Made by a program: the position numbers and the translations under genes
Notes under the pieces: generated by a model
What the model saw: the letters and a program-made list of their open reading frames with translations, nothing else
The model's database searches: none
Told to the model about the DNA's origin: nothing
Source: Opitutaceae bacterium
GTDB lineage: Bacteria; Verrucomicrobiota; Verrucomicrobiia; Opitutales; Opitutaceae
Assembly: GCA_040255565.1 (NCBI GenBank)
Contig: JBDZVH010000003.1
Coordinates: 677,228-741,227 of the forward strand
Direction of reading: 5' to 3'
Length of the DNA stretch: 64,000 bases
Shown here: positions 22,532-48,686 of the stretch, in pieces
How positions within the stretch are numbered: the stretch's first letter is position 1
Layout: every line of letters starts with the position of its first letter

Positions 22532-23350
22532 ATGCCAGTTGTCATCAACACCAACTTCGCGGCCACCGTGGCTGCGAACAACCTGACCGCTTCCAACGCC
22601 TCGCTGCAGCGCAGCCTCAACCGGCTTTCGAGCGGTTCGAAAATCGTCAACCCCGCCGACGACGCCGGTGGTCTCGCCGTGTCCATGAAACTGTCCGCCG
22701 CCGCCGTCCGCCAGGGCGCGGTGGGCACGAACATCGGCAATGCCACCTCGTATCTGCAAACGCAGGACGGCGTGCTGAAGGTCGCCGGCAAGGTCCTCGA
22801 TCGCATGGGCGAGCTGAAGACGCTCTACCTCGATCCGACCAAGAACAGCGACGACCTCGCGAACTACGACGCGGAGTTCAAGGCGCTCCAGGACCAGCTC
22901 TCGGCCCTGACCCAGGAAAAGTTCAACGGCGTCACGCTCTTCGGCTCCGGCGAGCTCTCGGTCTCCGTCACGGAAGACGGTGGCTCCAGCTCGGCGGTCA
23001 CGATCAAGGGTCGCGACCTCTCGAGCTCCACCTCGGGCGTCGGCGCGCTGACTTCGAACACCGTGACCTCGCTTTCCGGCATCCAGCTGAGCGACATCAC
23101 GGATGCGATCCAGCACGTCGCAACGTTCCGCGCCGAGAACGGCGCCGAACAGAGCCGCCTCGGCTTCGCCGCCGAATTGCTCACGGTCAACAAGGCCAAT
23201 CTCGAGGCCGCCTCGAGCCGCATTGTCGACGTGGATGTTGCCCAGGAATCGACCCAGCTCGCCCGCTGGAACACCCTCGTGCAGGCCGGCACGGCGATGC
23301 TCTCGCAGGCCAATCAGAGTGCGCAGACCGCACTCAAGCTGCTCCAGTAA
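22532..23350 (+). CDS. fliC: flagellin (short, 272 aa)
   Basis: The start was trimmed to the ATG at 22532 (MPVVINTNFAATVAANNL...). Conserved flagellin N-terminus (LQRSLNRLSSGSKIVNPADDAGGLAVS) and C-terminus (NGAEQSRLGF...DVDVAQESTQLARWNTLVQAGTAMLSQANQSAQTALKLLQ). The central segment is Ser/Thr-rich. Confidence 0.93.
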   Translation: MPVVINTNFAATVAANNLTASNASLQRSLNRLSSGSKIVNPADDAGGLAVSMKLSAAAVRQGAVGTNIGNATSYLQTQDGVLKVAGKVLDRMGELKTLYLDPTKNSDDLANYDAEFKALQDQLSALTQEKFNGVTLFGSGELSVSVTEDGGSSSAVTIKGRDLSSSTSGVGALTSNTVTSLSGIQLSDITDAIQHVATFRAENGAEQSRLGFAAELLTVNKANLEAASSRIVDVDVAQESTQLARWNTLVQAGTAMLSQANQSAQTALKLLQ

Positions 23351-23554
23351 TCCAGGAATAGCTTCCTTGCCCACCGCGCGGGCGGAGTAGTGACCCGCTC
23401 GCGCGACGCAGAGATTCTCACGCGGTTGTCTGAATCTGTGGGGCCCGAAGCCAGTCCTTGAAGTTCCCTCCCCTTTTTTGCGCGGCAGCAGCGCAATCCC
23501 CTTTGAGGCATTCGCCTCGAACGGCGCGGCCCACGCCGTCTATCAGGGCCCGTG

Positions 23555-23588
23555 GCGACTACGGAGTGTCGCAGCTTAAGATCAAGGA
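23555..23588 (+). promoter_or_regulatory. CsrA-type 5'UTR element of flagellin gene 2
   Basis: GCGAC-tacGGAgt-GTCGC hairpin at 23555..23572, then gatcAAGGAtag at 23584..23588, 7 nt before the ATG. Confidence 0.45.
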
Positions 23589-23594
23589 TAGACC

Positions 23595-24413
23595 ATGCCA
23601 GTCGTGATTAATACCAACTACGCCGCGACCGTTGCGGCGAACAACCTCGCCGCCAGCAACGCCTCGTTGCAACGGAGCCTCAACCGGCTGTCCAGCGGCT
23701 CGAAAATCGTGAACCCGTCCGACGATGCCGGCGGTCTCGCTGTCTCGATGAAATTGTCCGCCGCGGCCGTCCGTCAGGGCGCCGTTGCGACGAACATCGG
23801 CAACGCGACCTCTTACCTGCAAACCCAGGACGGTGCCTTGAAGGTCACCGGGAAGATCCTGGACCGCATGAGCGAGCTCAAGACGCTCTATGCCGACCCG
23901 ACCAAGAACAGCGACGACCTCGCGAACTACGACTCGGAATTCACCGCGCTGCAAGACCAGCTGTCGGCGATCACCGACGAGAAGTTCAACGGCGTGGCCC
24001 TCTTCGGTTCGGGCAACCTCTCGGTGAACGTCACCGAGGACGCCAACTCGTCCTCGGCCGTCACGATCAAGGGCCGCGACCTGTCCAGCTCCGGCACGGG
24101 CATCGGCAAGCTCAATGCGTCCAGCGTCACCACGCTGTCCGGCATCGAGCTCAGCGACATCACCGACGCGATTCAGAACGTCGCCACGATGCGCGCCGAA
24201 AACGGTGCCGAACAGAGCCGCCTCGGATTCGCGTCCGAGCTGCTCACGGTCAACAAGGCCAACCTCGAGGCCGCCTCGAGCCGCATCGTCGACGTCGACG
24301 TCGCCCAGGAATCGACCCAGCTCGCCCGCTGGAACACCCTGGTCTCCGCCGGCACCGCCATGCTGTCACAGGCGAACCAGAGCGCCCAGACCGCGCTCCG
24401 TCTGCTCCAGTAA
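23595..24413 (+). CDS. fliC: flagellin paralog (272 aa)
   Basis: Colinear with flagellin 1 without gaps. By eye about 33 substitutions in 272 residues, concentrated in the central Ser/Thr-rich segment. Confidence 0.93.
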   Translation: MPVVINTNYAATVAANNLAASNASLQRSLNRLSSGSKIVNPSDDAGGLAVSMKLSAAAVRQGAVATNIGNATSYLQTQDGALKVTGKILDRMSELKTLYADPTKNSDDLANYDSEFTALQDQLSAITDEKFNGVALFGSGNLSVNVTEDANSSSAVTIKGRDLSSSGTGIGKLNASSVTTLSGIELSDITDAIQNVATMRAENGAEQSRLGFASELLTVNKANLEAASSRIVDVDVAQESTQLARWNTLVSAGTAMLSQANQSAQTALRLLQ

Positions 24414-24693: not shown

Positions 24694-25272
24694 TCACCGC
24701 CAGCGTTCCGCGTCGATCATCTCCAGGAACTGGTGGACGATCAGCGTGTGCACTTCCTGGATACGCGCGACCCGCGCGCTCGGCACCACGAGCGCATGGT
24801 CGGCGAGCCGCCGCGCCTTGCCCCCGTCCTTGCCGCTCAAGAGCATCGTTTTCACGCCAAGCCGGCGGGCGCGCTTCAGCGCCGCGAGGATATTGGCGCT
24901 GTTGCCGCTGGTGCTGAACGCCACCAGCACGTCGCCCTTCTGCCCGAAGGCTTCCACGCCGCGCGCGAAGATTTCCTCGAAACCGTAATCGTTGCCGATG
25001 CACGTCAGCGCGGTGCCATCGCCACTGAGGCAGAGCGCCGGCAGGCCGCGCCGCTCCGCTTCGTAGCAGCCGACCAGCTCCTGCGCGAGATGCAGCGCAT
25101 CGGCCGCGCTCCCGCCATTGCCGCAGGTCAGAATCTTCCGGCCGCGCCGCAGACAGGCGACCAGATCGCGCCCCGCCGCGCGCACCGCCGGCCCGAGCTG
25201 GGCCGAAGCCGACACGACAGCCGCAAGTTCCTGGACGGATTCTTCAAAGGTGGGTGGTGCAACACGAGGCAT
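24694..25272 (-). CDS. gmhA: SIS-domain sedoheptulose-7-phosphate isomerase (GmhA-type)
   Basis: 192 aa. ILTCGNGGSAADALHLAQEL...VLVAFSTSGNSANIL...IQEVHTLIVH is the GmhA/DiaA SIS pattern. Confidence 0.8.
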   Translation of the reverse strand: MPRVAPPTFEESVQELAAVVSASAQLGPAVRAAGRDLVACLRRGRKILTCGNGGSAADALHLAQELVGCYEAERRGLPALCLSGDGTALTCIGNDYGFEEIFARGVEAFGQKGDVLVAFSTSGNSANILAALKRARRLGVKTMLLSGKDGGKARRLADHALVVPSARVARIQEVHTLIVHQFLEMIDAERWR

Positions 25273-25448
25273 GGCGGCAGAGAACCACGAAACTCACGAA
25301 AGACACGAAAGATTTCCCGAGCCCAAGGCGATTCAGAGTGGCCCACGGAACACACCGAAGGCGACCCGATCCGAAACTCGGAATTCCGTGGCTTCCGTGT
25401 GTTCCGTGGGCCACTCCGGATTTCGTGTCGTTCGTGTAGCTCGTGGTC
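25273..25448. repeat. structured intergenic repeat, family B (fills the whole gmhB-gmhA spacer)
   Basis: Nested imperfect palindrome. Outer arms: AGAACCACGAAACTCACGAAAGACACGAAAG / ATTTCGTGTCGTTCGTGTAGCTCGTGGTCCT. Inner arms: CCCACGGAACACACCGAAGG / CTTCCGTGTGTTCCGTGGG. The arms are built from 9-bp CACGNANNN sub-repeats. Confidence 0.85.
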
Positions 25449-26009
25449 CTACTTCGCTTCCGCGAGCACGTGCCGGATCGCCTCGTCGAAGCGATCGAAC
25501 ACCGGGTAAACGCCCGCCAGTTTTGCCGTCGCGAGTTCCGCGCGCAGATCTTCGCGTCCGGTCGCCACGCCCACGCCACGCGTGCCCGCCCGCGCCGCCG
25601 TTTCCAGGTCGAGCCCGCGATCGCCGATATAGCACACCTCTTCCGGCCGAAGGTTGAAGTCATTCAACACCTCGCGCGCGAAAGCCGGCGACGGCTTGCG
25701 ATAAACGCTCGCCTCGTCCGGCCGCTCCGGCGCGATGCAGATCCGCGCAAACGGCGCCTCGCCCAGCTCCAGCAGCTCGATCAGTCGGCGGTTGCAGGCG
25801 TGTACCGCGTCCAGCGGATACAACCCGCGGCCCACGCCCGACTGGTTGCTATGCAAGAAAAGTTTCAGCCCCGCCCGCTGCGCCGCGAGCAATCCCTCGC
25901 GCACGCCGGGCAGCAACTCCACCCGCGCCGGATCGGCGAGATACGGCACGTGCACGATGAGCGTGCCGTCGCGATCGAGGATGAGCGCCTTCAGTTTCGG
26001 AACAACCAT
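25449..26009 (-). CDS. gmhB: HAD-IIIA phosphatase, D,D-heptose 1,7-bisphosphate phosphatase (GmhB)-like
   Basis: 186 aa. ALILDRDGTLI (DxDGT nucleophile motif)...HSNQSGVGRG...YRKPSP...IGDRGLD. Confidence 0.75.
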   Translation of the reverse strand: MVVPKLKALILDRDGTLIVHVPYLADPARVELLPGVREGLLAAQRAGLKLFLHSNQSGVGRGLYPLDAVHACNRRLIELLELGEAPFARICIAPERPDEASVYRKPSPAFAREVLNDFNLRPEEVCYIGDRGLDLETAARAGTRGVGVATGREDLRAELATAKLAGVYPVFDRFDEAIRHVLAEAK

Positions 26010-26214
26010 GAGCGCTTCCGAGCAAATCGAACCGCGTCCTCCGCGCCAAGATCAGGAACCACGAAAGACACGAAAAGCATACCCGCCCACGGAATACACA
26101 GAACACACGGAAAATACCCGGATCCAAGATTCTGAATTCCGTGTTTTCCGTGTGTTCCGTGGGCTCCTCTGTCTGGGTCGATTTTCGTGTGTTTCGTGTC
26201 TTTCGTGGTTCCTC
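26010..26214. repeat. structured intergenic repeat, family B
   Basis: Perfect 21-bp outer inverted repeat GGAACCACGAAAGACACGAAA (26055..26075) / TTTCGTGTCTTTCGTGGTTCC (26192..26212). It encloses inner arms CCCACGGAATACACAGAACACACGGAAAA / TTTTCCGTGTGTTCCGTGGG. Confidence 0.88.
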
Positions 26215-27360
26215 TCACCCAGCCGCCGCGATCGCTTCGGCCACGATTTTTCCGACCGTTTCGTGGCGGTTGAAATGGTCATAGATCCGCCGGCGCTCTT
26301 CGTTCGACATCGCCAAGGCGCGCTCGCACTGCGTTGCGAGGTCTTGCAAATCCGCATGAGCGTAACGCGAGATCAGCGACGCGTCGTGCAGCTCCTGCAA
26401 GCGCCCGCCCGATTTCGAATCTTCGCTCACCGGCACCAGCCCCAGACAACCCGACCAGAACGGCCGGTCGGTGTGCGTCTTCGCCATCGCCAGCGTGGTG
26501 AACTTTCGACCTTCGGGACAGAAACCCACTTTGAACCGGTTGAGCGTATCGCGTTCGGCGACGGTTACCGAATGATCGTGAAACGGCACGAAGCGGTCCT
26601 TGAACGTCTTTCGCAAAAATTCGATCTGCCGCAGGCGATGCAGCGTGAGCCCGAGTTGCGACCCGAGGAAAACGATCTTCTCCTCCGGCGCTTCGTTGAA
26701 CGGAACCGCGAACGGGACGACGTTCGCGACCCAGCTGCGATGAATCGTCCGGCAGCCCGGCTTCAGTTTGGCGCGGGCCTTTTCGTCAAGCGGCGATTCG
26801 TCGTGAATCAGCACATCGAGATGCGGCGCGATGTCGGAGAAGCACGGCATGAACCGGCTCGCCTCGTCGAAGGCATAGAACAGCAGCTTCACGCCCATTC
26901 GCGACAGCAGGGAGAACACCTTTCCCGCGTTCGCGCCGAGCGCCTGCGGCTGATGTCCCATTAAGATCAGCCATCGCTCCTCGGAGCGTTGTAGGGCGGG
27001 GACTCCCGGCGCCGCCGCGAGCGCCTTGGGTGTGCGCTCCGTCAGTTCGATCAACCCGCGCGTTCCGCAAACCCACGCGGGCAAAAACTCGATCCGCGGA
27101 TGCTGCATCGCCGCAAAGCATCGCAAATTCTCGCCATACCAGTCGCAGTCGAGCCGCGCCTTGCGCATGAGCGCCGCGTCCGCCGGATTCGCGACGAACG
27201 GAGCAAGCTCCAGCGCCCGCACGCGCGCCACATAGGCCGCCGCATCTTCGAGCGCGCCCGCCCAAGTGTTGTAGTAGCAAATACGCAGCTCTCGGCGCGG
27301 GAGACCGGTGCGACTTGCCAGTGAAGCGGCATGCGACAGATCGGCAGTTTCAGCCACCAT
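26215..27360 (-). CDS. hypothetical protein, possibly CgeB-like/GT-B-type glycosyltransferase
   Basis: 381-aa ORF tightly packed in the island. The C-terminal part (KIVFLGSQLG...FCPEG...LGLVPVSED...ERRRIYDHF) loosely resembles the CgeB-like module at the N-termini of 28522..32160 and 36890..39967. The function is tentative. Confidence 0.6.
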   Translation of the reverse strand: MVAETADLSHAASLASRTGLPRRELRICYYNTWAGALEDAAAYVARVRALELAPFVANPADAALMRKARLDCDWYGENLRCFAAMQHPRIEFLPAWVCGTRGLIELTERTPKALAAAPGVPALQRSEERWLILMGHQPQALGANAGKVFSLLSRMGVKLLFYAFDEASRFMPCFSDIAPHLDVLIHDESPLDEKARAKLKPGCRTIHRSWVANVVPFAVPFNEAPEEKIVFLGSQLGLTLHRLRQIEFLRKTFKDRFVPFHDHSVTVAERDTLNRFKVGFCPEGRKFTTLAMAKTHTDRPFWSGCLGLVPVSEDSKSGGRLQELHDASLISRYAHADLQDLATQCERALAMSNEERRRIYDHFNRHETVGKIVAEAIAAAG

Positions 27361-27361: not shown

Positions 27362-28513
27362 TTAACGAAGGGAATAGGCGGCGCGGACGGTATCGTCTTT
27401 CACGACGTCGCGCTTCGCATGCAGGTCGAGCCAGAACGAATATCCCGCACCGAACCAAAATGGTGTTTGCCGCTGCTCCTCGCGCAATCGCCGGTAATAT
27501 CCATGCGTGCGCCTTACCTCTTCTGCATCGAGCCAGCGTCCGAGCGTGTCCTCGCCAAACGCACCGGAGGCTCCTTCAGGGAAGGCCCACCCATTGAACT
27601 GTCTCCGGCCGCCCAGATCCCCTGCTTCGACTTTCAGCTGCTCCGGCACCGGCGGGAGTTGAAGGGGAAGAAAGTGATATTGACTGATGCACTTGAAGCC
27701 ATGGTAACCGAGCTCGCTGAGCTGGCTGAGGAACCGCTCGAGGTTGCCCAATTCGACCGAGACATAAGTCGGGAGGTCGGAAGCACGCTTCAGTGCTTCG
27801 ATACAAAGATAGTCGTAACCTTCGATGTCGATCTTGAGAAAATGCGGGATGCCGTAGTTGGCGAGAATCCAATCGAAGGTTTGGCAGGGGATCTGAATGC
27901 TATGATGGGGCAGCCCGTCTCGTGACGCGATTTTCCGGTCAAAGGAATTCCAGACGCGATTCGTTTCGCAGATCCAGAAATCGAGCAAGCCCGGTTGCGC
28001 CGCGATTCCCACATTCACGATCTGAAGCCGACTATCCTGAATTTCTTTTTCAAACCGTGTCGCCGCAATCTTGCAGAGTTCAGGATCAGCCTCGACGGCG
28101 ACGGCACGGAATCCGCGATGGAGGTAATACGCCGTATCGTCCCCGTTATTCATTCCTACGTCGTAGATGAGGTCGTCCTGCAATCGTTCGGTTCCGCGAA
28201 GACGGTTGAACCACGTCTCGACTTCAGACGAACCATGCCGGTCCGATCCTCCCTGGTTCTGGAGCGCGGCCAGATTTGCGTTGGCGCATTCGTTCGAGGA
28301 ATCGATCTGAAGAACGGTTTCCAAACAAGCCTGCATCCCGGACCAATCGCCTAGTGCACAAAACGCACGGCCCAAGCCGAGTAATACACCAACCTGATCC
28401 CGATGACGTCCGACCAAGGTGCTGTAAAGGCTGGCCGCCTCCTTGAATCGGCCGGCTTCGAGCTGCGCGTCCGCGCGCTCCTTTGCCGAACCATACATGT
28501 GAGGGACGTTCAT
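27362..28513 (-). CDS. TPR-FkbM family methyltransferase
   Basis: 383 aa. N-terminal TPRs (EAGRFKEAASLYSTLV...ALGDWSGMQACLETVLQIDSSN). Then an FkbM-type methyltransferase domain (IYDVGMNNGDDTAYYL...FLKIDIEGYDYLCIEAL). Confidence 0.75.
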   Translation of the reverse strand: MNVPHMYGSAKERADAQLEAGRFKEAASLYSTLVGRHRDQVGVLLGLGRAFCALGDWSGMQACLETVLQIDSSNECANANLAALQNQGGSDRHGSSEVETWFNRLRGTERLQDDLIYDVGMNNGDDTAYYLHRGFRAVAVEADPELCKIAATRFEKEIQDSRLQIVNVGIAAQPGLLDFWICETNRVWNSFDRKIASRDGLPHHSIQIPCQTFDWILANYGIPHFLKIDIEGYDYLCIEALKRASDLPTYVSVELGNLERFLSQLSELGYHGFKCISQYHFLPLQLPPVPEQLKVEAGDLGGRRQFNGWAFPEGASGAFGEDTLGRWLDAEEVRRTHGYYRRLREEQRQTPFWFGAGYSFWLDLHAKRDVVKDDTVRAAYSLR

Positions 28514-28521
28514 CCTGGTGA

Positions 28522-31500
28522 TTACGCGGCTACCGAGGGTGTCTGCCGTGACACGGCCGTTGCGGGATCCGATCGTTGAAACGCGGGATGCCCCATCATA
28601 AGGGAAAGCAGATTCGCCTCCGTCTTGGTCACGCAGTAGAGCTCTGTGTAGATGTGAAAGAAAGCAGCCACTTCAGCTCGATCGTTGCGACGCGGCGCGC
28701 CTCCAAAAACTTGATCCAAGGTGAAGTGCAACGCCGCCTCGCCCTGCGCCTCATGCGTGAAGCCGAGGCCCCCGTAGAATGCGTCGCCGCACAACACCAC
28801 TTCTTTCCCGAGCAGCAACGCTTCAAGCCCCGCCTGCGAAGTGATCGTGACGCACACGTCGGCCGCGCGAATCAACTCGTAGGTGTCGAATTGATTCTCG
28901 TCATCGAGCACGAGATCGACCCCGAGCTTTTCTCGGCTGCGCTGAAACCCCTCGTGCTGTTCGAGCCATCCCGCCGTTAGTCGGCGGTAATAAGGCACCG
29001 GATCGGGGTAACTCGGGCTCTCCTTGGGATGGAGTTTAATCAGGAGCCTGCACCCCTTCTCCGCCGCATATGCTGCGAGCGCCGCAATTACGTCGACCTG
29101 TGAACTGAATCCCCGCAAGCCGAACAACACCGACGAATCCACGCCTACCTGGCCAATATAGGTGATCGTGCGCTTCCCCGCGTCGCCGCACTCGATACCC
29201 ACGCCGCGCGGTGTGCTATGCTCCACCGATTTGAGCGTCTTCATCGAGCGCAGATATTTGTCGACGGACGCGGCCGCCACTTCGGCATCCACCACATCGC
29301 GGAAGCGCCAATAATAGTTCTTCGCCTGGGTCGCGTTGACCGCGATACCCGAGATATCGTCCCACAGGAGGCGCTCGCGGTGGAACGTGTTTTCGATCGC
29401 GACCACTCTGATCCCGCGCTGTACACCCACGGCCCGCAGCACCGCCGCGACCATGTCGTGCCCTTGCGCCACCATGATCGACTCAGGCCGGTAGAAATCG
29501 CAGAACTGATTGGCTCGATCGATGACGGCGATGGCCGACGCGAACATTGTTGTGATCGCTTGCCACTGCTCAGCGTCCGAAGGATTGATCATAGCGGGCA
29601 AGCGACGGAGTTGCACCGAGAGCCGATAGGCGCAAACCCGCCACAAGAAAATTCCCCGGTGGGATGCGGTCCGAAAATCCAACGGTGTCACCAAGCTCCT
29701 CACTAGGCTCGCCGGCGGCGGTTCTCCAAGCAGCGTGACCAGCAGGACACCTTCGCGTGCCGCCATTCCAAACATCTTTCGTGTATCCAGCCCGAACCAC
29801 GGTTGATATCCGAATAAAACCGTCCGCCCAGGCACCGGATGTTCCTCGAGTGAGCTTGCCGTTTCTGTAGCGACCTCAAACGCGCGGCAGATCAGCAGCA
29901 TCGCTTCATCTCCTCGAATTTCTCGATCCTCGGCGATCGCCTCCACGCACCGCAAATCGGGCGATTGCACAACTAGGCGCTGCCAGCCGCGATCGCTGGA
30001 GGCTGCGCGACCTTCGCCGGAGCATGCGTGCAACTCGAGCAATCGCGTCGCAAATACGCTTCCTGCTTCACCGCGCAAAATGCGCAGGCGCTGACCGTAT
30101 TCTCGAAAACGCGCATCATCGGGCCACAGCGAGGCCCCCTGAACGAAAGACGCCAAGGCCATTTCCGAATCGCCCGACTGCAAGCACGCTTCAGCTTTTC
30201 CAAACCAGGAATCGGAATCACTACGGTCGAATTCGATGGAGCGAGCAAACTCCTCCGCCGCACGGCGGAAGGCTCCCTCTCTTCGGTAAACGCATCCGAG
30301 CGCAAAACGGAAGTCCGGCCGTTGCGGGTTTGCCGCGACCGCGGCCTCAAGAAATCCTTTCTCCTTTTGCAGCAACTCGTCGCGCCGGTCGGTTCGCGTC
30401 TCGCATTCAGCCAGACGAGCGACGGCCACAGCACAAATAAAATGCGCATCGGCGTTCGCTGGGTCGGAACGCAGCGCGAGATTCGCATAGTGCTGTGCTG
30501 CGACGAAATCGAGCGCTTCCAGGGCTCTCCACCCCATCGCCAGATAGCGCCGCGCGATCCACGGCCACGGCAACACACCGGCACTCCACTCCAACAAGGC
30601 GATCCGCGGATTGTCAGGCTGCGCGCGCCGCGCACTCGCGATCATCTTCTGCACGAGGGCTTCGTTTTTGGCCTCGAGCGCCAGCTCCGCGAGAATCAGA
30701 TATGCATCGGATGCCTGCGGATTTTGCGCCACCGCATTCCTCGCGCGAACAAGCGCCCCCTGCAGGTCGCCAGCTTCCAAATATCGCCGGGCTTCACCCG
30801 CCAAGTCGTCCGCCGGCGAAGTGGACTTCTTGCCGGAAACGAAAAGAGGCGTTGCCTGCCGCAGTACCAAGCCGGCGGCGGCCATTCGTGGCTGTAATGC
30901 TGCGAGGTTGGCTGTCGTCGCATCCCAGTACCAAATCCGGCGGCCCGGGAGCGCCGCCCCCTTCGTCATGGTCCGTGCACTGACAACCGCCAAGTCGGGC
31001 ACAACGCCTTCGGGCGCGAACACCCCGGCCACACGCACACGCGGCAAAGTCGAGGCGATGGCCTCCCATTTTTGCCGCTGCGCGTCATCGACGGCGACGA
31101 GCACCTGCTCCTGCTGACGATGCAGCTCGTTGACGACATCGTAGGCTGCGAGCGTGTCATCGAGTTCATTCGCACCGTTGCAGGTGAAGGACGTGACCGG
31201 CGTGGCCGAAGTGGCGAACACTGCTGGCTCTTTTCCCGAAAAAACCAGTTCCGTGAATGCCGCCTGCCGCCGCTCGGCAGTGAAATGTTCTTCGAACCAG
31301 CGACGGCCGGCCTCGCCAATAGCGCGGGCTTCATCTGGATGCGCAAGGTAGTGCCGTGCTTTTTCGACGAGGTCATCCGCGCTTTCGTAGGAAACCTTCG
31401 CCACGCCTTCACGGAGCAAATCGTCCAGACCCGACTCGGGTGCGAGACGATCCGTGAGCAGCATCGCACCGCCGGCGATGGTTTCGAAGACCCGGAGATT

Positions 31501-39800: not shown

Positions 39801-39967
39801 GCAATCGCCGCGAGATCGTACTGACCGATCGGCGTCCGCAGCGAAATCCACCGGCCGTCCGGCGCCCGCTGGTCTTCCCAGTCCGGCCCGCACACCACCT
39901 GCTCGTCGCCGAGCCGCGGCGGAGCCATGTAATGCGCGGGAGAACCTGTCGCGAAGAGGACGCGCAT
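36890..39967 (-). CDS. giant modular glycan-assembly protein: CgeB-like GT module - TPR block - TagF-like CDP-alditol phosphotransferase domain
   Basis: 1025 aa. The N-terminal module is paralogous to 28522..32160 (MRVLFATGSPAHYMAPPRL...NASLNGDLNLRVFEVLASGAALLTD). TPRs follow (DPKNVEWKCELGVTLREAGKLEEAIAAFEAAVRLD...). The C-terminal roughly 380 aa (VFVQNPYD...VTGHPKMD...FVIRPHPLF...LLTDASSFVLEYAGTGRPLLYL) resembles TagF/TarL-type glycerol- or ribitol-phosphotransferases. This call is from memory. Confidence 0.7.
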   Translation of the reverse strand: MRVLFATGSPAHYMAPPRLGDEQVVCGPDWEDQRAPDGRWISLRTPIGQYDLAAIAAKLPPEQQPDVVVSLVDSSWRNTPRGLAKFSCPRVLLVADTHHLQQPISQMLRYAASEPYTRVVLLYDRHHAGFFQAAGVQNLFWFPGLTFPHGDDAVRAARQKTRAPHIGFVGQLGKHHPRRQRLADALAARKLPLRVQPLPQAAALKFYGSSLIGFNASLNGDLNLRVFEVLASGAALLTDVLAPESGLTALLADGREMLTYRSPEELAERAAHALAHRSETAAIGAAGAKWLDEHFNDARRREAFRALAFDGRTRPEFSLERGSGARVWFGGDKLRLNQAAAVYETMQELHRTQESVTIACDASVPAEVVDLYGTLPRLHVGRRAATAADLVICSRTQVSGEFAKSAARVWCWDAAASELPALAKQLQERGLVPQGGGHALFARGDAVPVEGQAADLPELLKNAAERLAQEDFAAAASLAERAVKMDNKNVTAYGLLGRGFRGIRRFDGALVAFKLAGHLDPKNVEWKCELGVTLREAGKLEEAIAAFEAAVRLDSRHRPSWFALGKSLFDAQRYEAAANAFQRAHLLAPHDPQPLLWNGHAVKRQGRVLDALKLHQRAVGGSGDVSAPSPGGRRRVMFVVQHGPFWPSTAPVYRAFAADSSWEVTVVALPYNHPYYTRDEERNAVFDFLKKEGIPHLHWSEVRLQPGCADVVFVQNPYDVSRPEGWCTHEIIRSVPRIAYIPYALEIGGGLENATMQVNLTTQQLAWAVFARSTRHRATFAKLCEAGDAHVTVTGHPKMDNLRHLASVHDEELERFVAGRRMVFWNPQFDVRRDGSAFGKGYSTFLRWQEFLPAEFARRQDLAFVIRPHPLFFATLEQREILTAEQIAGFLERCAAAGNILIDRRPSYLPVFAYASALLTDASSFVLEYAGTGRPLLYLHNPNGPGLNADGEFVHSHCARATEESEIKAFLDDVAAGRDEGGPARRAAYKDYMHLPEEGVATAIKRTIEERLDAEHRAAQERRVA

Positions 39968-42484: not shown

Positions 42485-44404
42485 TCAGGACACCGACGTC
42501 ATCGCCGCGCGCTCAGGGGTCGCCTGGTCACCCGCGGCTCCACCGCACCACCTTCGCCAGCACTCCCGCAGCGCCTCGCCAAAACGCCTCGCCTGCGCCG
42601 CGTGATCCATCAAGGCCGCCCCCTGCAATGCTTCACGCAAGGCACGGCTCGCATCTTCCGTGCGCCGGCCCGCGGCGGCGAGCCCGGCTGCGATCCGCGC
42701 ATAATCGTCCGCGGTGTTGGCCACCCATTCGGCTCGGTCCACCGATGCCAGCAGGCTCGCACCCACGCGCGACACGTGCCGGTCGCCCGCGAGCGTCACC
42801 ACCGGCACACCCATCCACAGCGCCTCACAGGTCGTCGTCGTGCCGTGATACGGATACGTGTCCAGCGCCACATCGATGCGACGATACGCGGCCAGATGCG
42901 CCGCGAGACCCACGATCCGGCCAAGCAACTCGACGCGTTCCGCCGCGATTCCGCAGCGCGCGAAGCGTTCGCGGCACCACGCCTGATTCGCCGGCGTGTC
43001 GAGTCCCTGCGATTTCAACAGCAGCCGTGCGTCCGGCACCGCCGCCAGGATCCGCGACCACAGCGTGAGCGTCGTGTCGCTGACCTTCGAAAAATTATTG
43101 AAACAGCCAAACGTCACCGGCCCCTCCGCCTCCCGCAACGGCTCCGGCGCGTCGCGCGGCGGTGCATACGCCCAGGCCGTCGGCGCAAATCGCACCAGCC
43201 GCTCCGTGTGAAAGCGGTCCGCGTCGCCCGCCGGATCTGCGATCGCATCCGTGAAACGATAATCCATCTCCGCCAGCCCCGTCGTATCCGGATAACCGAG
43301 ATACGTGATCTGCACCGGTGCGAGCCGGCGCGCAAACAGCGGCAGGCGATTGAACCCGGTATGACCGGCCAGATCGATGACGACGTCCGGCGCATCGGCC
43401 CGCATCGCCGCTTCGACCCGGCCGTCCGGCCAACCCGCCACGTGACGCCATTGTGCCGCCTGCGCCCGCAGCCGCTCCGACATCGCGTCCACCCGCGCGT
43501 GATCGTGATACAGGAAAATCTCGAACTGGGTCCGATCGAGTTGCGCCAGCAGCGGCTCCAGAAAATACGCGACCGAGTGCGCCCGCAGATCCGGCGACAA
43601 AAACGCCACACGCAACCGCCGCTCCGGATCCGGCAGGTGCGCAAACTTCGGCGAGGGTGAAAGCCCCATCGCGTCGCGCACCGTGTGCCCGAAGGCCTGG
43701 TGTTCGCGCAGCAACGCTTCGCGCTCAACTCCGTCGAGATAGTGCCGACTCAACAGCCGCGCACTGCGCGCTTCATGATTCGCCGGGTGTTTCGCGAGCA
43801 CCTCGTCATAAGCGGCGACCGCCTCGTCGACGCGATGCGCCTGCTGCAACGCCAGCGCGCGGCCCGTGAGCGCCTGCGCCTCGTCGGGATTGATCGCAAG
43901 GGCCCGGTCGAAACAAGCGACGCCTTCGTCCGGATTGCCCGACTGGGTCAACGCCACGCCGAGATTCGCCCACCCGTCCGCCGCGCGGGGCTGCAGCTCC
44001 GTCACCCGGCGAAAATGCGGCACCGCGGCGGCGAAACCTTCCAGTGCCGCCGCCAGCTCGCCGAGAGCGTAGTGGGCGTCGGCATTCGCCGGCTCAAGCG
44101 CCACGACGCGTCGGGCGGCGTCGCGCGCCTCCGCGTGACGGCCGGATTTCTTCAACGCCTCCGCCAGGCGCAACGCGCACGCCGCCGAGCGCGGATTCAG
44201 CTGCAGCGCCCGAACGAGAAACCGGGCCGCGTCCTCGCAGCGCCCCTGCTGCAGCGCGAGGAAACCGGAGAGTTGAAACGCATCGAAGCTGCGCGGGGCC
44301 GCCGCGCGGGCGTGCGCATAGATCTTTTCCGCCTCGTCCAGACGTCCGGCGCGATGACGCGTCAGGGCATCCTGCAGCAGATTCGCGAGCTGTGCTGGAG
44401 TCAT
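42485..44404 (-). CDS. TPR - GT41 (O-GlcNAc-transferase-like, SPINDLY family) glycosyltransferase, paralog 1
   Basis: The start was trimmed to the ATG at 44404, an ATGA overlap with the upstream stop. N-terminal TPRs. The C-terminus has YLGYPDTTG...DYRFTDAIADP... and YPYHGTTTTCEALWMGVPVVTLAGDRHVSRVGASLL. This matches the OGT catalytic-core signature as I recall it from human OGT (NGHTTGMDVLWAGTPMVT). Confidence 0.8.
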   Translation of the reverse strand: MTPAQLANLLQDALTRHRAGRLDEAEKIYAHARAAAPRSFDAFQLSGFLALQQGRCEDAARFLVRALQLNPRSAACALRLAEALKKSGRHAEARDAARRVVALEPANADAHYALGELAAALEGFAAAVPHFRRVTELQPRAADGWANLGVALTQSGNPDEGVACFDRALAINPDEAQALTGRALALQQAHRVDEAVAAYDEVLAKHPANHEARSARLLSRHYLDGVEREALLREHQAFGHTVRDAMGLSPSPKFAHLPDPERRLRVAFLSPDLRAHSVAYFLEPLLAQLDRTQFEIFLYHDHARVDAMSERLRAQAAQWRHVAGWPDGRVEAAMRADAPDVVIDLAGHTGFNRLPLFARRLAPVQITYLGYPDTTGLAEMDYRFTDAIADPAGDADRFHTERLVRFAPTAWAYAPPRDAPEPLREAEGPVTFGCFNNFSKVSDTTLTLWSRILAAVPDARLLLKSQGLDTPANQAWCRERFARCGIAAERVELLGRIVGLAAHLAAYRRIDVALDTYPYHGTTTTCEALWMGVPVVTLAGDRHVSRVGASLLASVDRAEWVANTADDYARIAAGLAAAGRRTEDASRALREALQGAALMDHAAQARRFGEALRECWRRWCGGAAGDQATPERAAMTSVS

Positions 44405-46281
44405 CGCACGGCTTCGTTGCTGGCGCTCGCCGATCGCTCGCACGCGTTGACCCAACACGCGCGCAACGCGGCGCCAAACCGCGCGGCCTGGCCGGCATGA
44501 TCCAGCAGCGGCGAGCGCTGCATCGCCGTTCGCACGGATGCAGGATCGACCGGGTCAGCCGCAAGCCGCGCGGCGATTCGCACGTATTCATTTTCGTCCG
44601 ACGCCACCCATTCGGGATGTCCGACGGCATGGAGCAGGCTCACGCCCACGCGCGCCGCGTGGCGATCGCCCGCGAGCGCCACCACCGGCACGCCCATCCA
44701 CAGCGCCTCGCAGGTCGTGGTCGTGCCTTGATACGGGAATGTGTCGAGCGCCACGTCGACGCGTCGATAAAGCGCCAGATGCGCCGCCGAATCCGGCAGC
44801 CGCCCCACCAGTTCCAGCCGTTCCACGGGAAGTCCGGCCCGCCGAAAACGCGTCAGCCACCTGTCGCGGGTCGCGGATTCGCCCAGACCTTCGCCCTTGA
44901 TCAACAGCCGCGACGCCGGCACCTCCGCGAGCACGCGGGCCCACAGCGCGAGCACCCGCTCCGTGATTTTCGCGAGATCGTTGAAGGACCCAAACGTCAC
45001 GGGCCCGGGGAGGCGGCGCTCGCGCGGCATCGGCGCAGCGACCGGCGGCCGATACGACCACGCGACCGGCGCGAAGCGCACCAGTTGCTCGGTCGCGAAT
45101 GGCTCCGCGTCACCCGGAGGATCCGCGATCGCGTCGGTGAAACGATAATCCATCGCCGCCACGCCGGTCGTATCCGGATATCCAAGATACGTGACCTGCA
45201 CCGGCGCCACGCGACGCGCGAAGACGGGCAGGCGGTTACACATGCCGGTGTGCCCGGCCAGATCGATCAGAATATCCGGCGCATCCGCGAGCAGCGTCGC
45301 CTCGACAGCCGCATGCGTTTGTCCAACCAGGTTGCGCCACCGCGCACCGCGCGATCGCAGCCGCGCCGACACCTCGTCTTCACGGAAGTGATCGTGATAA
45401 AGCCACACTTCGAACTCCCTTTCGTCGAGATGCTCGAGCAGCGGTTCGAAAAAATACGCGCAGGAGTGCTCGCGCAGGTCCGGCGACCACACCGCCACTT
45501 TCAGCCGCCGCGCCGGATCGCGTTCATTCGCGAAAGTCCGTGACGGCGGTGCGCCCAGCATCCGGCCAAACGCGGCGTGCTCCTCGAAAAGCCATTCGCG
45601 CGACAGGCCGTCCACGCACTGCAGCACCATCAATCGGCAGCTCCGGGCTTCGGCATCGGCCGGTTCAGCCGTGAGCACGCGATCGTAATCCTCGATCGCC
45701 TCCGGAATTCGTTTCAACCGATGCAACACCTGCGCGCGCGCCAGCCGCGCGGACGCGAGATTCGCCTCGAGTGCCAGCGCTCGTTCCTGGCACGTCAGCG
45801 CCGCCTCGAGCTCTCCTTGCAGCGCGAGGGTCAGCCCGTAATTGCACCACAGGACGGCGCTGCGCGCCGACGCGGCCACCGCTTTTTGATGGCAGGCGAC
45901 CGCCTCGGCGAGCCGGTCCTGCGTTTTCAAACAGTAAGCCAGTTGATCCCAGGCCTCCGCGGCGCGAGGATCGCGGGCGGTCACGCGGCGCAACCGCTGC
46001 TCGGCATCCGCCGGGCGGCCCGCCGCCAGCAGCGCCGCGCCCAGTCGCATCTCGCAGACCGAAGACGACCGATCCAGCCGATGCGCTTTCTCCAACAGCT
46101 CGACCGCCTGCGCCGCGCGCCCCTGCTGATGCGCCAGCAATCCCGAAAGGTGCAGGGCGTCAAAATCGAGCGGCTTCGCCACGCGCACCTGTCGATACAG
46201 TGTCTCCGCCGCCTCGAGCCGACCGGCGCGATGCAGCGCCACGGCCTCTTGCAGGATCGATTGTCGCTTGGCGGGAGACAT
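44401..46281 (-). CDS. TPR - GT41 (OGT-like) glycosyltransferase, paralog 2
   Basis: 626 aa with the same architecture: FPYQGTTTTCEALWMGVPVVALAGDRHAARVGVSLL. Confidence 0.8.
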   Translation of the reverse strand: MSPAKRQSILQEAVALHRAGRLEAAETLYRQVRVAKPLDFDALHLSGLLAHQQGRAAQAVELLEKAHRLDRSSSVCEMRLGAALLAAGRPADAEQRLRRVTARDPRAAEAWDQLAYCLKTQDRLAEAVACHQKAVAASARSAVLWCNYGLTLALQGELEAALTCQERALALEANLASARLARAQVLHRLKRIPEAIEDYDRVLTAEPADAEARSCRLMVLQCVDGLSREWLFEEHAAFGRMLGAPPSRTFANERDPARRLKVAVWSPDLREHSCAYFFEPLLEHLDEREFEVWLYHDHFREDEVSARLRSRGARWRNLVGQTHAAVEATLLADAPDILIDLAGHTGMCNRLPVFARRVAPVQVTYLGYPDTTGVAAMDYRFTDAIADPPGDAEPFATEQLVRFAPVAWSYRPPVAAPMPRERRLPGPVTFGSFNDLAKITERVLALWARVLAEVPASRLLIKGEGLGESATRDRWLTRFRRAGLPVERLELVGRLPDSAAHLALYRRVDVALDTFPYQGTTTTCEALWMGVPVVALAGDRHAARVGVSLLHAVGHPEWVASDENEYVRIAARLAADPVDPASVRTAMQRSPLLDHAGQAARFGAALRACWVNACERSASASNEAVR

Positions 46282-46287
46282 GAACCC

Positions 46288-46788
46288 TCAGGCCGTGATC
46301 GGGTTGGCGGCGAACGCCTCCGCGTTGACCAGTTCGTCGATCCGCTGCTGCAGATCCGCCCGACCGGGCGCGAGAGCCAGCGCGCGACGCAGGCACGCGA
46401 TCGCCTCGGCCACCGGGTGGCCCAGCGCACAATGGACATTGGCGAGATTTTCCCACGCTTCGGGATACCCGCGATGTGCCGTCAGCGCCGTGCGCAGCGG
46501 TCGCTCCGCCTCTTCATAACGCCCCGCATCCGCGAGCGCCATGCCGAGGAAAAGTTTGCACTCCACCGAGCGCGGATCGAGGCGCTGCGCGCGCGAAAGA
46601 AACCCGATCGCCTCCTCCAGATGTCCACCGCGCTGAAACGCGAGCGCACCGGCAAGATACCAGCCATCGAACAACCGCGGCGCGGTCCGGCAGACCTGCG
46701 CATAGAGTCGGGCGGCTTCGTCGATCTGCCCGGCCTTGTGCTGGGCGAGTGCGGTGTCGAGGAGTTGGTGGATTTTTTTCGCGTTCAT
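46288..46788 (-). CDS. stand-alone TPR protein
   Basis: The start was trimmed from ORF 46288..46902 to the ATG at 46788 (MNAKKIHQLL...), an ATGA overlap with the upstream stop. The 166 aa are TPRs only and resemble the N-terminal halves of the flanking GT41 paralogs. Confidence 0.7.
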   Translation of the reverse strand: MNAKKIHQLLDTALAQHKAGQIDEAARLYAQVCRTAPRLFDGWYLAGALAFQRGGHLEEAIGFLSRAQRLDPRSVECKLFLGMALADAGRYEEAERPLRTALTAHRGYPEAWENLANVHCALGHPVAEAIACLRRALALAPGRADLQQRIDELVNAEAFAANPITA

Positions 46789-48686
46789 AAAGAGACCAGT
46801 GAAGAGGCCGGGCGCGCGGTATCCGCCGCCGGCTCGATCGCCGCCCGCCAGCACTCGCGCAGCGCCGCACCGAAACGCGCCGCCTGGCCGGCGTGATCGC
46901 ACAGCGGCGAACGCGACATCCGCGAGCGCAGTTCGGCGCGCAACGTCGCCAGGCGATCCGCATCGCGGGCGAGCCGCAGCGCGATTTCAAGATATTCGTC
47001 CGGCGTCCGCGCCACCCAATCGGCGCAACCGACCGCGCTCAACAACGACAGGCCCACGCGCGAGGCATGGCGATCGCCCAGCAGCGCGACCACCGGCACG
47101 CCCATCCACAACGCTTCGCACGTCGTCGTCGTGCCGTGATAGGGAAACATGTCGAGCGCCACGTCGACGCGCCCATAAAGCGCGAGATGCGACGCGGTGT
47201 CCGGCGTATGCGCCAGCAGCTCGACGCGATCGCCCGCGAGACCCACGGCCTCCAGGCGACGCAGCAGCGGTTCACGCACCGCCGGTTCGGCCAACCCGCC
47301 GGCCTTGATCAAGAGGCGGGAATCCGGCAGCTGCGCGAGCAGACGCGCCCACAGCCGCAGCATCGTATCGGTCGCCTTCGCGAAATTGTTGAACGAACCG
47401 AATGTCACACCGCCCCGCGTCAGACACGGCGGCGGCGAGGGCTCCGGCGCGCTCGCGGGCGGCAGATAACACCAGGCCACGTCCGCGAAGCGCACGAGTT
47501 TCTCCGTGTGAAACCTGTCCGCCTCGCCCGCCGGATCCGCGATCGCATCCGTGAAACGATAATCCATCGCCGGGACGCCCGTGGTGTTGGGATAACCGAG
47601 ATAAGAGATCTGCACCGGCGCCAATCTGCGGGCGACCAGCGGGAGCCGGTTCAACCCGGTGTGGCCGGCCAGGTCGACCAGAAGGTCCGGCGCGTCGGCG
47701 CGTATCGTTTTTTCCACGACATCGTCCGCCTGTCCGGCGAAGTGCCGCCAGAGTGCCGCCTTGGAACGCAGCGCCGCGGAAACGCGATCGACCACCGGGT
47801 GATCGTGATACAGCACGATCTCGAACGCGGCCGGATCGAGATGGCGCAACAACGGCTCCAGAAAATAGGCCACCGAATGCTCGCGCAGGTCCGGCGAAAG
47901 AAAGGCGACGCGCAACCGCCGCGCGGGATCGTCCGCCCGGATCCGCCGCGGCGGGGCCGGCAGTTCGCGTCCGAAGGCCACATGCTCCGCCAGGATCTCC
48001 TCGCGGCTGCGTCCGTCGAGACAGTTGAGCACCATCAGCCGATAACTTCTCGCTTCGAGTTGCCGCGGATCGCGCGCGAGCACCGCCGCGAATTCCGCCT
48101 CCGCTTCAACCACGCGATGACATTTGTAGAGCGTCATGGCACGACCGGCTCTCGCCCGCAGATGGCCGGGATCGAGCTCGAGCGCGCGATCGAAACATGC
48201 GAGCGCCTCGGTCGGACCGCCTTGAAGGGCAAGGGTCGCGCCGAGCGCCTGCCAGCCCTGCGCGAAATCGGGCTTCAACTTCACGGCCAGCCGCTGCGCG
48301 TCGATGGCTTCTGCGATGCGCCCGCTCGTCTTCAACACCAGTGCCAGATGATGCCACGCCTCAGCGTGCCGCGGCACGGCCGCGACCACGCGTCGCAGGA
48401 TCGCCTCGGCCTCCGCCGTCCGACCGCACGCGATATTCGCGACGGCAAGACCGAACGCCGTCTGGTGCGACGCCGGGCTGAGCTTCAACGCCTGTGCGAG
48501 CCAGCGCGTCGCCTCTTCCGTTTTCCCCGCCAGCAAGGCCGTCATGCCGGCCTGATGCCACGCCTGCACATCCGACGGCACGAGCGCGCACGCCCGTTGA
48601 TAGCACGCCAGCGCGTCCGCCAAACGTCCTTTGCGGCGCCAGGCGTCACCTTCGGTTAACAGGTGTTGATGTCTAGCGGGCGGCAT
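46785..48686 (-). CDS. TPR - GT41 (OGT-like) glycosyltransferase, paralog 3 (first gene of the island)
   Basis: 633 aa: FPYHGTTTTCEALWMGVPVVALLGDRHASRVGLSLL. N-terminal TPRs. Confidence 0.8.
   Translation of the reverse strand: MPPARHQHLLTEGDAWRRKGRLADALACYQRACALVPSDVQAWHQAGMTALLAGKTEEATRWLAQALKLSPASHQTAFGLAVANIACGRTAEAEAILRRVVAAVPRHAEAWHHLALVLKTSGRIAEAIDAQRLAVKLKPDFAQGWQALGATLALQGGPTEALACFDRALELDPGHLRARAGRAMTLYKCHRVVEAEAEFAAVLARDPRQLEARSYRLMVLNCLDGRSREEILAEHVAFGRELPAPPRRIRADDPARRLRVAFLSPDLREHSVAYFLEPLLRHLDPAAFEIVLYHDHPVVDRVSAALRSKAALWRHFAGQADDVVEKTIRADAPDLLVDLAGHTGLNRLPLVARRLAPVQISYLGYPNTTGVPAMDYRFTDAIADPAGEADRFHTEKLVRFADVAWCYLPPASAPEPSPPPCLTRGGVTFGSFNNFAKATDTMLRLWARLLAQLPDSRLLIKAGGLAEPAVREPLLRRLEAVGLAGDRVELLAHTPDTASHLALYGRVDVALDMFPYHGTTTTCEALWMGVPVVALLGDRHASRVGLSLLSAVGCADWVARTPDEYLEIALRLARDADRLATLRAELRSRMSRSPLCDHAGQAARFGAALRECWRAAIEPAADTARPASSLVSL

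Follow-up and report, generated by a model that had tools for sequence, protein, structure and literature searches.

What is made by fourteen genes that run tail-to-tail into two flagellin genes, and on which molecule is it made? The question is raised by a 64,000-nucleotide stretch of DNA from an uncultured Opitutaceae bacterium (hereafter the window; assembly GCA_040255565.1, contig JBDZVH010000003.1, positions 677,228 to 741,227), for which the original prediction, made from the letters alone, had proposed a system that builds a ribitol-phosphate/heptose glycopolymer directly on flagellin. Our analysis indicates that the fourteen genes probably form a cytoplasmic flagellin O-glycosylation island, whose most likely action is the addition of phosphate-linked ribitol to the glycan of the filament. 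To our knowledge a few Proteobacteria and Firmicutes are the bacteria in which flagellin glycosylation is understood, and we know of nothing on it for the Verrucomicrobiota, a phylum that is abundant in soil and freshwater. The two flagellin genes and the genes of the island, which we number G1 to G14, are as follows (TPR, tetratricopeptide repeat; aa, amino acids):

22532..23350, plus strand: flagellin 1 (FliC1), 272 aa, presumed acceptor, with Flagellin_N and Flagellin_C
23595..24413, plus strand: flagellin 2 (FliC2), 272 aa, with Flagellin_N and Flagellin_C
24694..25272, minus strand: G1, SIS-domain sugar-phosphate isomerase, GmhA-like (SIS_2, 93 bits)
25449..26009, minus strand: G2, HAD-IIIA phosphatase, GmhB-like (passes TIGR01662)
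26215..27360, minus strand: G3, glycosyltransferase of predicted GT-B fold, anchor gene of the island
27362..28513, minus strand: G4, TPR plus FkbM-type methyltransferase (Pfam/NCBIfam)
28522..32160, minus strand: G5, 1212 aa, N-terminal PF13524 (CgeB-like) glycosyltransferase, TPR and C-terminal KpsC/KpsS-like domain (PF05159)
32179..33081, minus strand: G6, GT-A glycosyltransferase (GT2/GT7C, Pfam)
33734..35422, minus strand: G7, GT-B-like N-terminal domain plus C-terminal Methyltransf_24 (45.7 bits)
35610..36893, minus strand: G8, fusion of an IspD-like cytidylyltransferase and an SDR reductase, putative Bcs1-type CDP-ribitol (CDP-alditol) synthase
36890..39967, minus strand: G9, 1025 aa, N-terminal PF13524 glycosyltransferase, TPR and C-terminal TagF-like domain (aa ~620-1025)
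39978..42338, minus strand: G10, GT41-like domain followed by C-terminal TPR (PF13844, 52.6 bits)
42485..44404, minus strand: G11, TPR plus GT41 protein O-glycosyltransferase (PF13844, 124 bits)
44401..46281, minus strand: G12, TPR plus GT41 protein O-glycosyltransferase (PF13844, 121 bits)
46288..46788, minus strand: G13, TPR only, 166 aa, resembling the N-termini of TPR-GT41 paralogues
46785..48686, minus strand: G14, TPR plus GT41 protein O-glycosyltransferase, first gene of the island (PF13844, 124 bits)

The island and its place beside the flagellin genes

The strongest pointer to the target of these genes is where they are found. G3 is the most conserved gene of the island, with 55-78% identity across related loci; it has 887 homologues, the best 120 listed being 63-99% identical to it. 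A scan based on the G3 alignment, with one genome per species, found 141 relatives, and each of the 80 loci returned belongs to the Opitutaceae or to other Verrucomicrobiota. Flagellin adjacency was counted over the 60 G3 loci with at least 7 kb of downstream flank: a flagellin gene lies downstream of G3 in 50 of these, within 3 kb in 44, at a median distance of 1.9 kb. Wherever a flagellin is found downstream its orientation is convergent to G3, L087 being the exception. The conserved association across the Opitutaceae that the original prediction had suggested looking for is thus present. ORFs (open reading frames) with multiple transmembrane (TM) segments occur on the island side in only 4 of 87 loci.

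Cultured Opitutus terrae PB90-1 carries the same island, with an HDOD gene on one side and two flagellins on the other; the identities are 62% for G1, 70% for G2, 64% for G3, 72% for G8, 47% over the full length for G9 and 45% for G10, and a TPR-GT41 protein is also present. In this locus (L001, 20143-21672) an MptE-like/Maf-type protein and a polysaccharide pyruvyltransferase adjoin the flagellins, and both are missing from the window. Six further loci hold G3 or G9 homologues beside the series flagellin, FliD, FliS, sigma-54 activator and CheX, one of them (L002) ending before the flagellin side is reached. Their interiors differ and variously contain an aminotransferase with a nucleotidyltransferase, deoxy-amino-sugar genes, thiamine pyrophosphate enzymes or GT4 giants. 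Because flagellin glycosylation islands are recognised by a position that stays fixed while the interior is replaced, we read these loci as directed at flagellin, and they suggest a lineage-wide, hypervariable, G3-anchored flagellin glycosylation island in the Opitutaceae.

The layout of the window itself agreed with the original prediction in that the 14 co-directional ORFs at 24694-48686 lie on the minus strand and converge on the flagellins, facing FliC2 tail-to-tail. The accompanying statement that they are mostly joined by ATGA overlaps or gaps of less than 20 bp holds for 8 of the 13 junctions, namely three ATGA overlaps (G14/G13, G12/G11 and G9/G8) and five gaps of 1-18 bp; at the other five the gaps are 146-652 bp. 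TPR blocks are carried by eight proteins (G4, G5 and G9-G14) and not by the seven counted before. Of the domain calls tested against Pfam, those of IspD plus SDR, FkbM, Methyltransf_24, GT2/GT7C, GT41 in four proteins, PF13524 in G5 and G9, and PF05159 in G5 pass.

The products appear to be soluble throughout. In a simple hydropathy test (Kyte-Doolittle, 19-residue windows) the maximum across all 14 island proteins was 1.50, and a check of the same simple kind recovered no signal-peptide-like N-terminus among them. Exporter genes, including kpsMT/kpsED, Wzx/Wzy and polyprenyl-phosphate transferase genes, were absent from the Pfam-scanned ORFs of the 64-kb window, and those scanned ORFs that lie outside the island belong to chemotaxis, the flagellum or regulation, with a few that lack a Pfam match. 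Hydropathy and domain scan together bear out the earlier observation that the island encodes no membrane helix, signal peptide or export component.

The two flagellins, 88% identical to each other, offer a plausible acceptor. At aa 135-190, 22 of the 56 residues in FliC1 and 18 of the 56 in FliC2 are Ser or Thr, which upholds the Ser/Thr-rich centre described earlier for flagellin 1 and corrects its count of 21. Across 108 Opitutaceae flagellins (254-276 aa) this stretch is the least conserved segment, and its Ser/Thr content is 34% as against 19% elsewhere. We infer that the Ser and Thr residues of this short variable centre receive the glycan.

Four proteins (G10, G11, G12 and G14) pass PF13844, in keeping with the GT41 assignment made at the outset. 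G11, G12 and G14 are 626-640 aa long, with the TPR first and the glycosyltransferase second; for the catalytic half of G12 the matches are Arabidopsis SPINDLY at 6e-78, the O-GlcNAc transferase (OGT) of T. terrenum at 6e-65 and XcOGT at 3e-36. Given this strong match to SPINDLY and OGT, we regard the three as true TPR-GT41 protein O-glycosyltransferases. Their architecture is that of Caulobacter FlmG, as originally proposed, an enzyme in which the TPR binds flagellin and the GT-B domain sets the donor. The start of G11 was reset to the ATG at 44404, which gives the ATGA overlap with G12. Orthologues of G10 occur in related islands at 41-56% identity. Compared with the N-termini of TPR-GT41 proteins from related loci, G13 shows 37-44% identity, and it could be a truncated paralogue or a free-standing adaptor.

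G3 itself gave no match in Pfam or NCBIfam, and its GT-B nature is deduced from the predicted fold. The AlphaFold2 model (pLDDT 88.7) had as its top Foldseek match GtfC, a protein-glycosylating enzyme of the accessory Sec (aSec) type, with SdgB, which likewise glycosylates proteins, and BshA also recovered, at TM-scores of only ~0.45-0.5. The idea that G3 is a 'CgeB-like' paralogue of G9 was dropped, as the sequence comparison of the two returned no similarity.

The CDP-alditol synthase and the TagF-like enzyme

The chemistry is indicated chiefly by G8 and G9, whose genes share an ATGA overlap, so that a synthase of a cytidine diphosphate (CDP)-alditol does stand directly beside a TagF-like enzyme, as first noted. 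In Haemophilus influenzae, Bcs1/Acs1 consist of an IspD/TarI-like cytidylyltransferase fused to a C-terminal SDR reductase. The same fusion was found in G8, with IspD at 179.8 bits (aa 8-220) and adh_short at 81 bits (aa 282-388) in Pfam, and the best PDB match was the ribitol-5-phosphate cytidylyltransferase TarI (4jis at 5e-32; also 6xhp), all of which supports the Bcs1-like CDP-ribitol synthase fusion proposed for it. TarI and IspD structures score nearly equally for G8, which reaches 141.6 bits against a cut-off of 166 with the NCBIfam subfamily for ribitol-5-phosphate cytidylyltransferase and 199.6 bits against a cut-off of 181.3 with the ispD domain model. Judged from these sequence matches, the product would be CDP-ribitol or a closely related CDP-alditol, other CDP-alditols being possible.

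The C-terminal domain of G9 was aligned with those of 38 full-length homologues. In the resulting 39 sequences the Q of a QHG motif is invariant and its H is found in at least 90%, and the histidine of an RPHP motif is likewise invariant. TagF-like enzymes are marked by two histidines: the N-terminal subdomain carries the first in a WHG or QHG motif, and the C-terminal subdomain carries the second (H444 and H584 in TagF). By motif both are present in G9. A profile of eight such C-terminal domains, run against all PDB sequences, had a single match, the ribitol-phosphate polymerase TarL (8va1, E=0.021, 158 columns), which covers the motifs TGHPKxD, WNPQF, RPHP and SDASSFxLEY..GKP and aligns RPHP with the TarL 'kmHPf'. 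The AlphaFold2 model of the domain (pLDDT 93.5) has a predicted GT-B fold; in Foldseek searches its best TM-score was with Bcs3 (8a0c, TMq 0.62), and TarL and TagF were recovered at E ~1e-10. A precomputed match to PF04464, the TagF family of Pfam, is carried by 14 homologues of G9. On the combined strength of profile, motifs and fold we accept 'TagF-like' as the best assignment for this domain.

A further line of evidence is the company that this domain keeps. It is present in 12 of 87 loci, and a nucleotidyltransferase gene occurs in 9 of the 12 loci with the domain as against 1 of the 75 without it (Fisher p=4e-9, a value that is indicative only, because the loci are related and the nucleotidyltransferase seeds were taken from domain-carrying loci). 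In three of the nine co-occurring loci the nucleotidyltransferase is an IspD-SDR fusion, and in six it belongs to other NTP-transferase types. One locus (L003, 8023-9973) pairs a full-length G9 orthologue with a class V aminotransferase and an NTP_transf_3 protein; in another (L004, 13033-17810) such an orthologue occurs with two nucleotidyltransferases, a DUF711 protein and two methyltransferases. These two loci suggest that the CDP-activated phospho-donors differ between species.

At its N-terminus G9 shares with G5 and with homologues elsewhere a conserved domain for which PF13524 was the sole family match, and a profile of it found nothing among PDB sequences. In homologues of G9 this glycosyltransferase domain of ~440 aa is joined to varying heads, usually by way of a TPR block; across species the heads include TagF-like, pyruvyltransferase, GT4, S-adenosylmethionine (SAM)-methyltransferase and radical-SAM/SPASM domains (P0004, P0007, P0075, P0081, P0082 and others). 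Conversely, a TagF-like head is also found on a GT41+GT4+TPR body, in a protein of 1746 aa encoded next to an IspD-SDR gene (L007, 3413-8653).

Remaining genes and surroundings

The heptose part of the original prediction fared less well. G1 scores 196 bits against TIGR00441 (gmhA), with an equivalog cut-off of 209, and G2 scores 83 bits against the GmhB equivalog, with a cut-off of 178; because both fall below these cut-offs, the GmhA and GmhB calls are family-level only. A search of the island revealed neither a heptose kinase nor a heptose nucleotidyltransferase, and the four activities of an ADP/GDP-heptose pathway, judged by equivalog scores, are not assembled there, so that the claim of heptose is weak. 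G1 and G2 adjoin G3 in a few loci only. The two might also feed the CDP-alditol branch instead of a heptose. Both accompany G8 in O. terrae as in the window, and in the sequence covered of L007 and L013 they do not. In L074 a distant homologue of G3 stands beside a divergently oriented gene for a HAD protein and genes for a SIS protein, an EamA transporter and an NAD-dependent sugar epimerase/dehydratase (PF16363/PF01370), and in L086 and L080 the gene detected next to the G3 homologue is a HAD gene alone. These arrangements hint that G3, the HAD protein and the SIS protein act together on one sugar, possibly heptose. The three loci just named belong to a minority that lacks a flagellin within 10 kb, and their G3 homologues are more distant (55-58% identical). 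The possibility that such loci lie beside flagellar export genes was rejected, since the multi-TM neighbours in L074 are cytochrome oxidase subunits and transporters.

Between the anchor and G8 lie the four genes G4-G7. G5 scores 76.6 bits with PF13524 and 51.2 bits with PF05159; its C-terminal domain alone reaches 53.3 bits against a cut-off of 20, and matches KpsC (6mgb) at E=2.4e-5 over the motif SQxGxEALxxGKxV...FYxGxGxT. The QxxxKD motif of KpsC is not reproduced in G5, which reads GQVGVDSS, and use of a CMP-Kdo-type donor (Kdo, 3-deoxy-D-manno-octulosonate) by this domain is a guess. The N-terminal domain of G7 has weak, sub-threshold matches to DUF6716 and Capsule_synth, and had no counterpart among PDB sequences. 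The G+C content at third codon positions (GC3) in G4-G7 (27362-35422) is 0.58-0.69, as against 0.76-0.89 in the rest of the island and its flanks, and overall G+C falls to 0.57. Amid these genes is a gene-free gap of 652 bp (33082-33733) in which no convincing ORF was found. Given the low GC3, and given that most of G4-G7 have no counterpart in most related loci, the segment looks like a recently exchanged cassette.

Short tandem repeats of 9 bp lie in the intergenic DNA upstream of G1 and G2, with respect to the minus strand: CACGAAAGA repeated three times at 25286-25312, TTCCGTGTG 2.8 times at 26137-26161 and TTTCGTGTC 2.8 times at 26183-26207. They may be binding sites of a regulator.

The island as a whole sits within a chemotaxis and flagellar region, between FliS, FliD and the flagellins on one side and HDOD regulators on the other. 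The genes at 1-22 kb encode CheR, CheB, CheD, CheA, CheW, methyl-accepting chemotaxis proteins, CheX, a sigma-54 activator, FliS and FliD, and those at 49-59 kb encode HDOD and two-component regulators. The window has a G+C content of ~65%; its nearest database proteins are 99% identical copies from short metagenome contigs, and its named relatives are Opitutus, Lacunisphaera, Oleiharenicola and other Opitutaceae. No Rfam family was matched in it. Promoters of the sigma-28 (FliA) type were sought with the pattern TAAA-N15/16-GCCGATA, which has three exact matches in the window. These and the HDOD genes are:

22403..22428, plus strand: sigma-28-type promoter, TAAA-N15-GCCGATA, upstream of flagellin 1 (exact pattern match)
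19736-19761, minus strand: sigma-28-type promoter before the small-ORF/FliS operon (exact match)
15772-15798, minus strand: sigma-28-type promoter before cheX (exact match)
4899-5771, 48949-49941, 49973-50953 and 55563-56489: four separate HDOD-domain genes

Versions of the sigma-28 pattern with one mismatch occur at 11186 and 17962, and flagellin 2 is preceded by a degenerate version only. A sigma-54 promoter pattern was discarded as a candidate, its 5 occurrences in the window being at chance level (4.6 expected). The upstream end of the island is flanked by two of the four HDOD genes, and these recur as flanking genes of the islands in O. terrae and L003.

Proposed pathway, alternatives and known systems

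The following scheme would accommodate these data; we infer in it the acceptor, the order of the steps, the identities of the sugars and the length of the chain. The soluble enzymes would work on flagellin in the cytoplasm, while it is unfolded or bound to a chaperone and has yet to undergo type III export. G11, G12 and G14, with the related G10, would place the first sugars on Ser and Thr of the flagellin centre, the TPR arm of the TPR-GT41 enzymes holding flagellin in the manner of FlmG. The glycan would then be lengthened by G3 and G6 and by the glycosyltransferases at the N-termini of G5 and G9, perhaps together with the N-terminal domain of G7. In the third step G8 would make CDP-ribitol or a related CDP-alditol from a ketose phosphate, and the TagF-like domain of G9 would attach the alditol phosphate to the glycan in phosphodiester linkage. 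The logic of this step would be that of Pseudomonas aeruginosa PA1090/PA1091 and of FtaB/FtaD in Clostridioides difficile, where a CDP-activated donor is supplied by FtaB, and FtaD, which is TagF-like, moves the phospho-group to O-GlcNAc flagellin in vitro. The KpsC-like domain of G5 might add a further residue, possibly of the Kdo type from a CMP donor, and G4 and G7 would methylate. One or a few ribitol-phosphate units per glycan are expected, and no long polymer.

Several observations weigh against the addition of phosphate-linked ribitol to flagellin. Against PF04464 the score of G9 is 17.4-19.9 bits, below the cut-off of 22.1; the TagF-like call of the original prediction thus leans on the motifs and the fold, together with the TarL profile match. 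The E-value of that match is itself weak, and when Foldseek matches are ranked by E-value, UDP-GlcNAc 2-epimerases come above TagF-like enzymes, an ambiguity that was also met by the authors who studied CD0244 (FtaD) of C. difficile. Of the two forms of the motif, QHG has been described for hexose-phosphate transferases and WHG for glycerol-phosphate polymerases, and hence the donor of G9 could be a sugar phosphate. The IspD domain of G8 passes the true-IspD model TIGR00453 as well, and the caution attached to the Fisher p-value belongs here too. With regard to the acceptor, no flagellin lies within 10 kb of G3 in 10 of the 60 loci, and one of the flagellin-less loci, L074 (G3 in the region 6267-11101), adjoins cytochrome oxidase genes. 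The sigma-28 pattern was not found before any island operon of the window, so that a promoter-based case for co-regulation of the island with flagellin fails. Finally, the literature searched has yielded no report on modification of Opitutaceae flagellin and no experimental data on such a flagellin.

Among the alternatives, the one that survives best is the glycopolymer of the original prediction, in which poly(glycosyl-ribitol-phosphate) would be built on flagellin by G9 as a two-domain polymerase, the KpsC-like domain of G5 making a linker. The domain set of G9 (glycosyltransferase, TPR and TagF-like domain in ~1000 aa) is that of Cps1B, Cps7D and Bcs3, the last of which also gave the best TM-score for the C-terminal model, and a KpsC-like domain is indeed present in the island. 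Ribitol phosphate has free hydroxyls for re-glycosylation, unlike the phospho-threonine handled by FtaD and FgtA (PA1091), and since a polyol phosphate can be re-glycosylated, repeated units are chemically possible on flagellin. Sequence by itself is silent on chain length, however, and the TagF family includes enzymes of single transfer such as TagB, CpsA and FtaD, while FgtA, which is likewise a fusion of a glycosyltransferase and a TagF-like domain, makes a single sugar-phosphate-X unit. The pairing of full-length G9 orthologues with differing nucleotidyltransferases in other loci fits a decorating role. Long chains are also disfavored by the flagellar export channel, which is ~2 nm wide, and by the length of the longest flagellin glycans known to us, ~11 sugars. 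We therefore hold this polymer to be unlikely. Its fuller form, in which G9 and CDP-ribitol would build an oligomer or polymer on flagellin Ser/Thr that is exported by the type III route, possibly after priming by G5, is similarly doubtful; it would amount to a teichoic-acid-like polymer borne by a protein, with the Opitutaceae holding a family of TPR-scaffolded enzymes with interchangeable heads that diversify their flagella.

An improbable alternative is that the genes make a polymer of the cell surface, which would be a capsule of the group-2 type or a teichoic-like glycan with a glycolipid anchor, with exporters outside the window and the flagellins nearby through mere co-location. A KpsC/S-like domain, a TagF-like domain and a CDP-ribitol synthase are indeed typical of ABC-transporter-dependent capsule loci, the enzymes of which also lack TM segments. 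Yet the kpsMT/ED, Wzx/Wzy and polyprenyl-phosphate transferase genes sought in the 64 kb were missing, multi-TM genes are nearly never on the island side of the 87 loci, and adjacency to flagellin is kept while the interior is replaced. The three SPINDLY-like protein O-glycosyltransferases and the Maf-type gene of the O. terrae island speak against it as well. Least probable of all is a role in cytoplasmic O-glycosylation of proteins at large, or of another flagellar or secreted target such as FliD or hook proteins, which would be compatible with the many substrates of the GT41 enzymes OGT and SPINDLY and with an acceptor that sequence does not fix, but is at odds with the convergence of G3 on flagellin at a median of 1.9 kb, the Ser/Thr-rich exposed segment of flagellin, and the precedents of FlmG, Maf, FgtA and FtaD, all of which are flagellin-directed.

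If the preferred reading, phosphate-linked ribitol on the flagellin glycan, is correct, ribitol phosphate, which is known from teichoic acids, the capsule of H. influenzae type b and mammalian alpha-dystroglycan, would be placed on a bacterial flagellin. By analogy the chemistry of FtaD and FgtA, in which a CDP-activated phospho-group is put on a flagellin glycan, would be extended to a polyol donor. The potential for re-glycosylation of a polyol makes the island a natural place for asking whether such enzymes polymerise on protein, and as O. terrae PB90-1 is in culture with the same core, the prediction is directly testable.

The original prediction took teichoic-type chemistry on flagellin to be undescribed; this does not hold, since CDP-activated donors are used on the flagellin glycan by two phosphotransferases of the TagF-like kind, FtaD (CD0244) and FgtA (PA1091). 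Of the two systems, the PA1088-PA1091 cluster of P. aeruginosa PAO1 resembles the island in adjoining fliC and in encoding a fusion of a glycosyltransferase with a TagF-like domain, FgtA, beside a cytidylyltransferase, a HAD-type enzyme and a methyltransferase. Its product is a sugar-phosphodiester-X on Ser/Thr of the b-type flagellin. It differs in its donor, CDP-(di)methylthreonine, in having four genes rather than fourteen, and in lacking GT41 and KpsC-like proteins; by description, the glycosyltransferase of FgtA is of family GT2 and no TPR is reported in it, unlike in G9. The type A system of C. difficile (CD0240 with FtaABCD) likewise combines a TagF-like enzyme with a cytidylyltransferase, a HAD-like enzyme and a methyltransferase, but these are separate small proteins of a Gram-positive host that act on a single GlcNAc core with CDP-N-methylthreonine as donor.

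The likeness of G11, G12 and G14 to Caulobacter FlmG is one of layout and size, as they share with it the N-terminal TPR, the C-terminal GT-B domain, a length of ~600 aa and solubility, and the Caulobacter flagellins, at ~273 aa, are close in size to the 272-aa flagellins of the window. FlmG differs in transferring pseudaminic or legionaminic acid, and NeuB/Pse/Leg genes for nonulosonic acids were absent from the Pfam-scanned ORFs of the island and the window.

The group 2 capsule polymerases (Cps1B, Cps7D, Cps3D, CslB and Bcs3 of H. influenzae) resemble G9 in the combination of glycosyltransferase, TagF-like domain and TPR, in their size of ~1000-1250 aa and in the use of CDP-polyol donors. 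Cps1B, Cps7D and Bcs3 polymerise by using their two catalytic domains in turn, and without the TPR the primer is not elongated. G9 is distinguished from these polymerases by its domain order, by its glycosyltransferase family (PF13524) and by QHG in place of WHG; like TagF and TarL, they also depend on a lipid-anchored primer, in loci with KpsMT/ED or TarGH exporters. Bcs1/Acs1 parallel G8 in the fusion of cytidylyltransferase and SDR. KpsC and KpsS parallel the C-terminal domain of G5, which passes PF05159 and aligns with their conserved C-terminal motif, but in G5 the domain is mounted on a scaffold of glycosyltransferase and TPR, and neither a lipid-linked pathway nor a kps exporter lies nearby.

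The flagellin glycosylation islands of enterobacteria are comparable to those of the Opitutaceae in being hypervariable, horizontally shuffled and adjacent to flagellin genes, and one of their types (type 12, in two strains) carries genes for ribitol synthesis (De Maayer and Cowan 2016). They belong to another phylum and have another repertoire of transferases, in which TagF-like enzymes or TPR giants are not described. Flagellin glycosylation islands, TPR-glycosyltransferase enzymes acting on flagellin, TagF-like phosphotransferases acting on flagellin glycans and ribitol genes in enterobacterial islands are thus already known. New are the lineage and the way in which the parts are combined: a donor of the CDP-alditol type, initiators resembling SPINDLY, enzymes in which a glycosyltransferase and TPR carry an exchangeable head (predicted to be TagF-like, KpsC-like, pyruvyltransferase, GT4, methyltransferase or radical SAM), and the conserved GT-B anchor G3.

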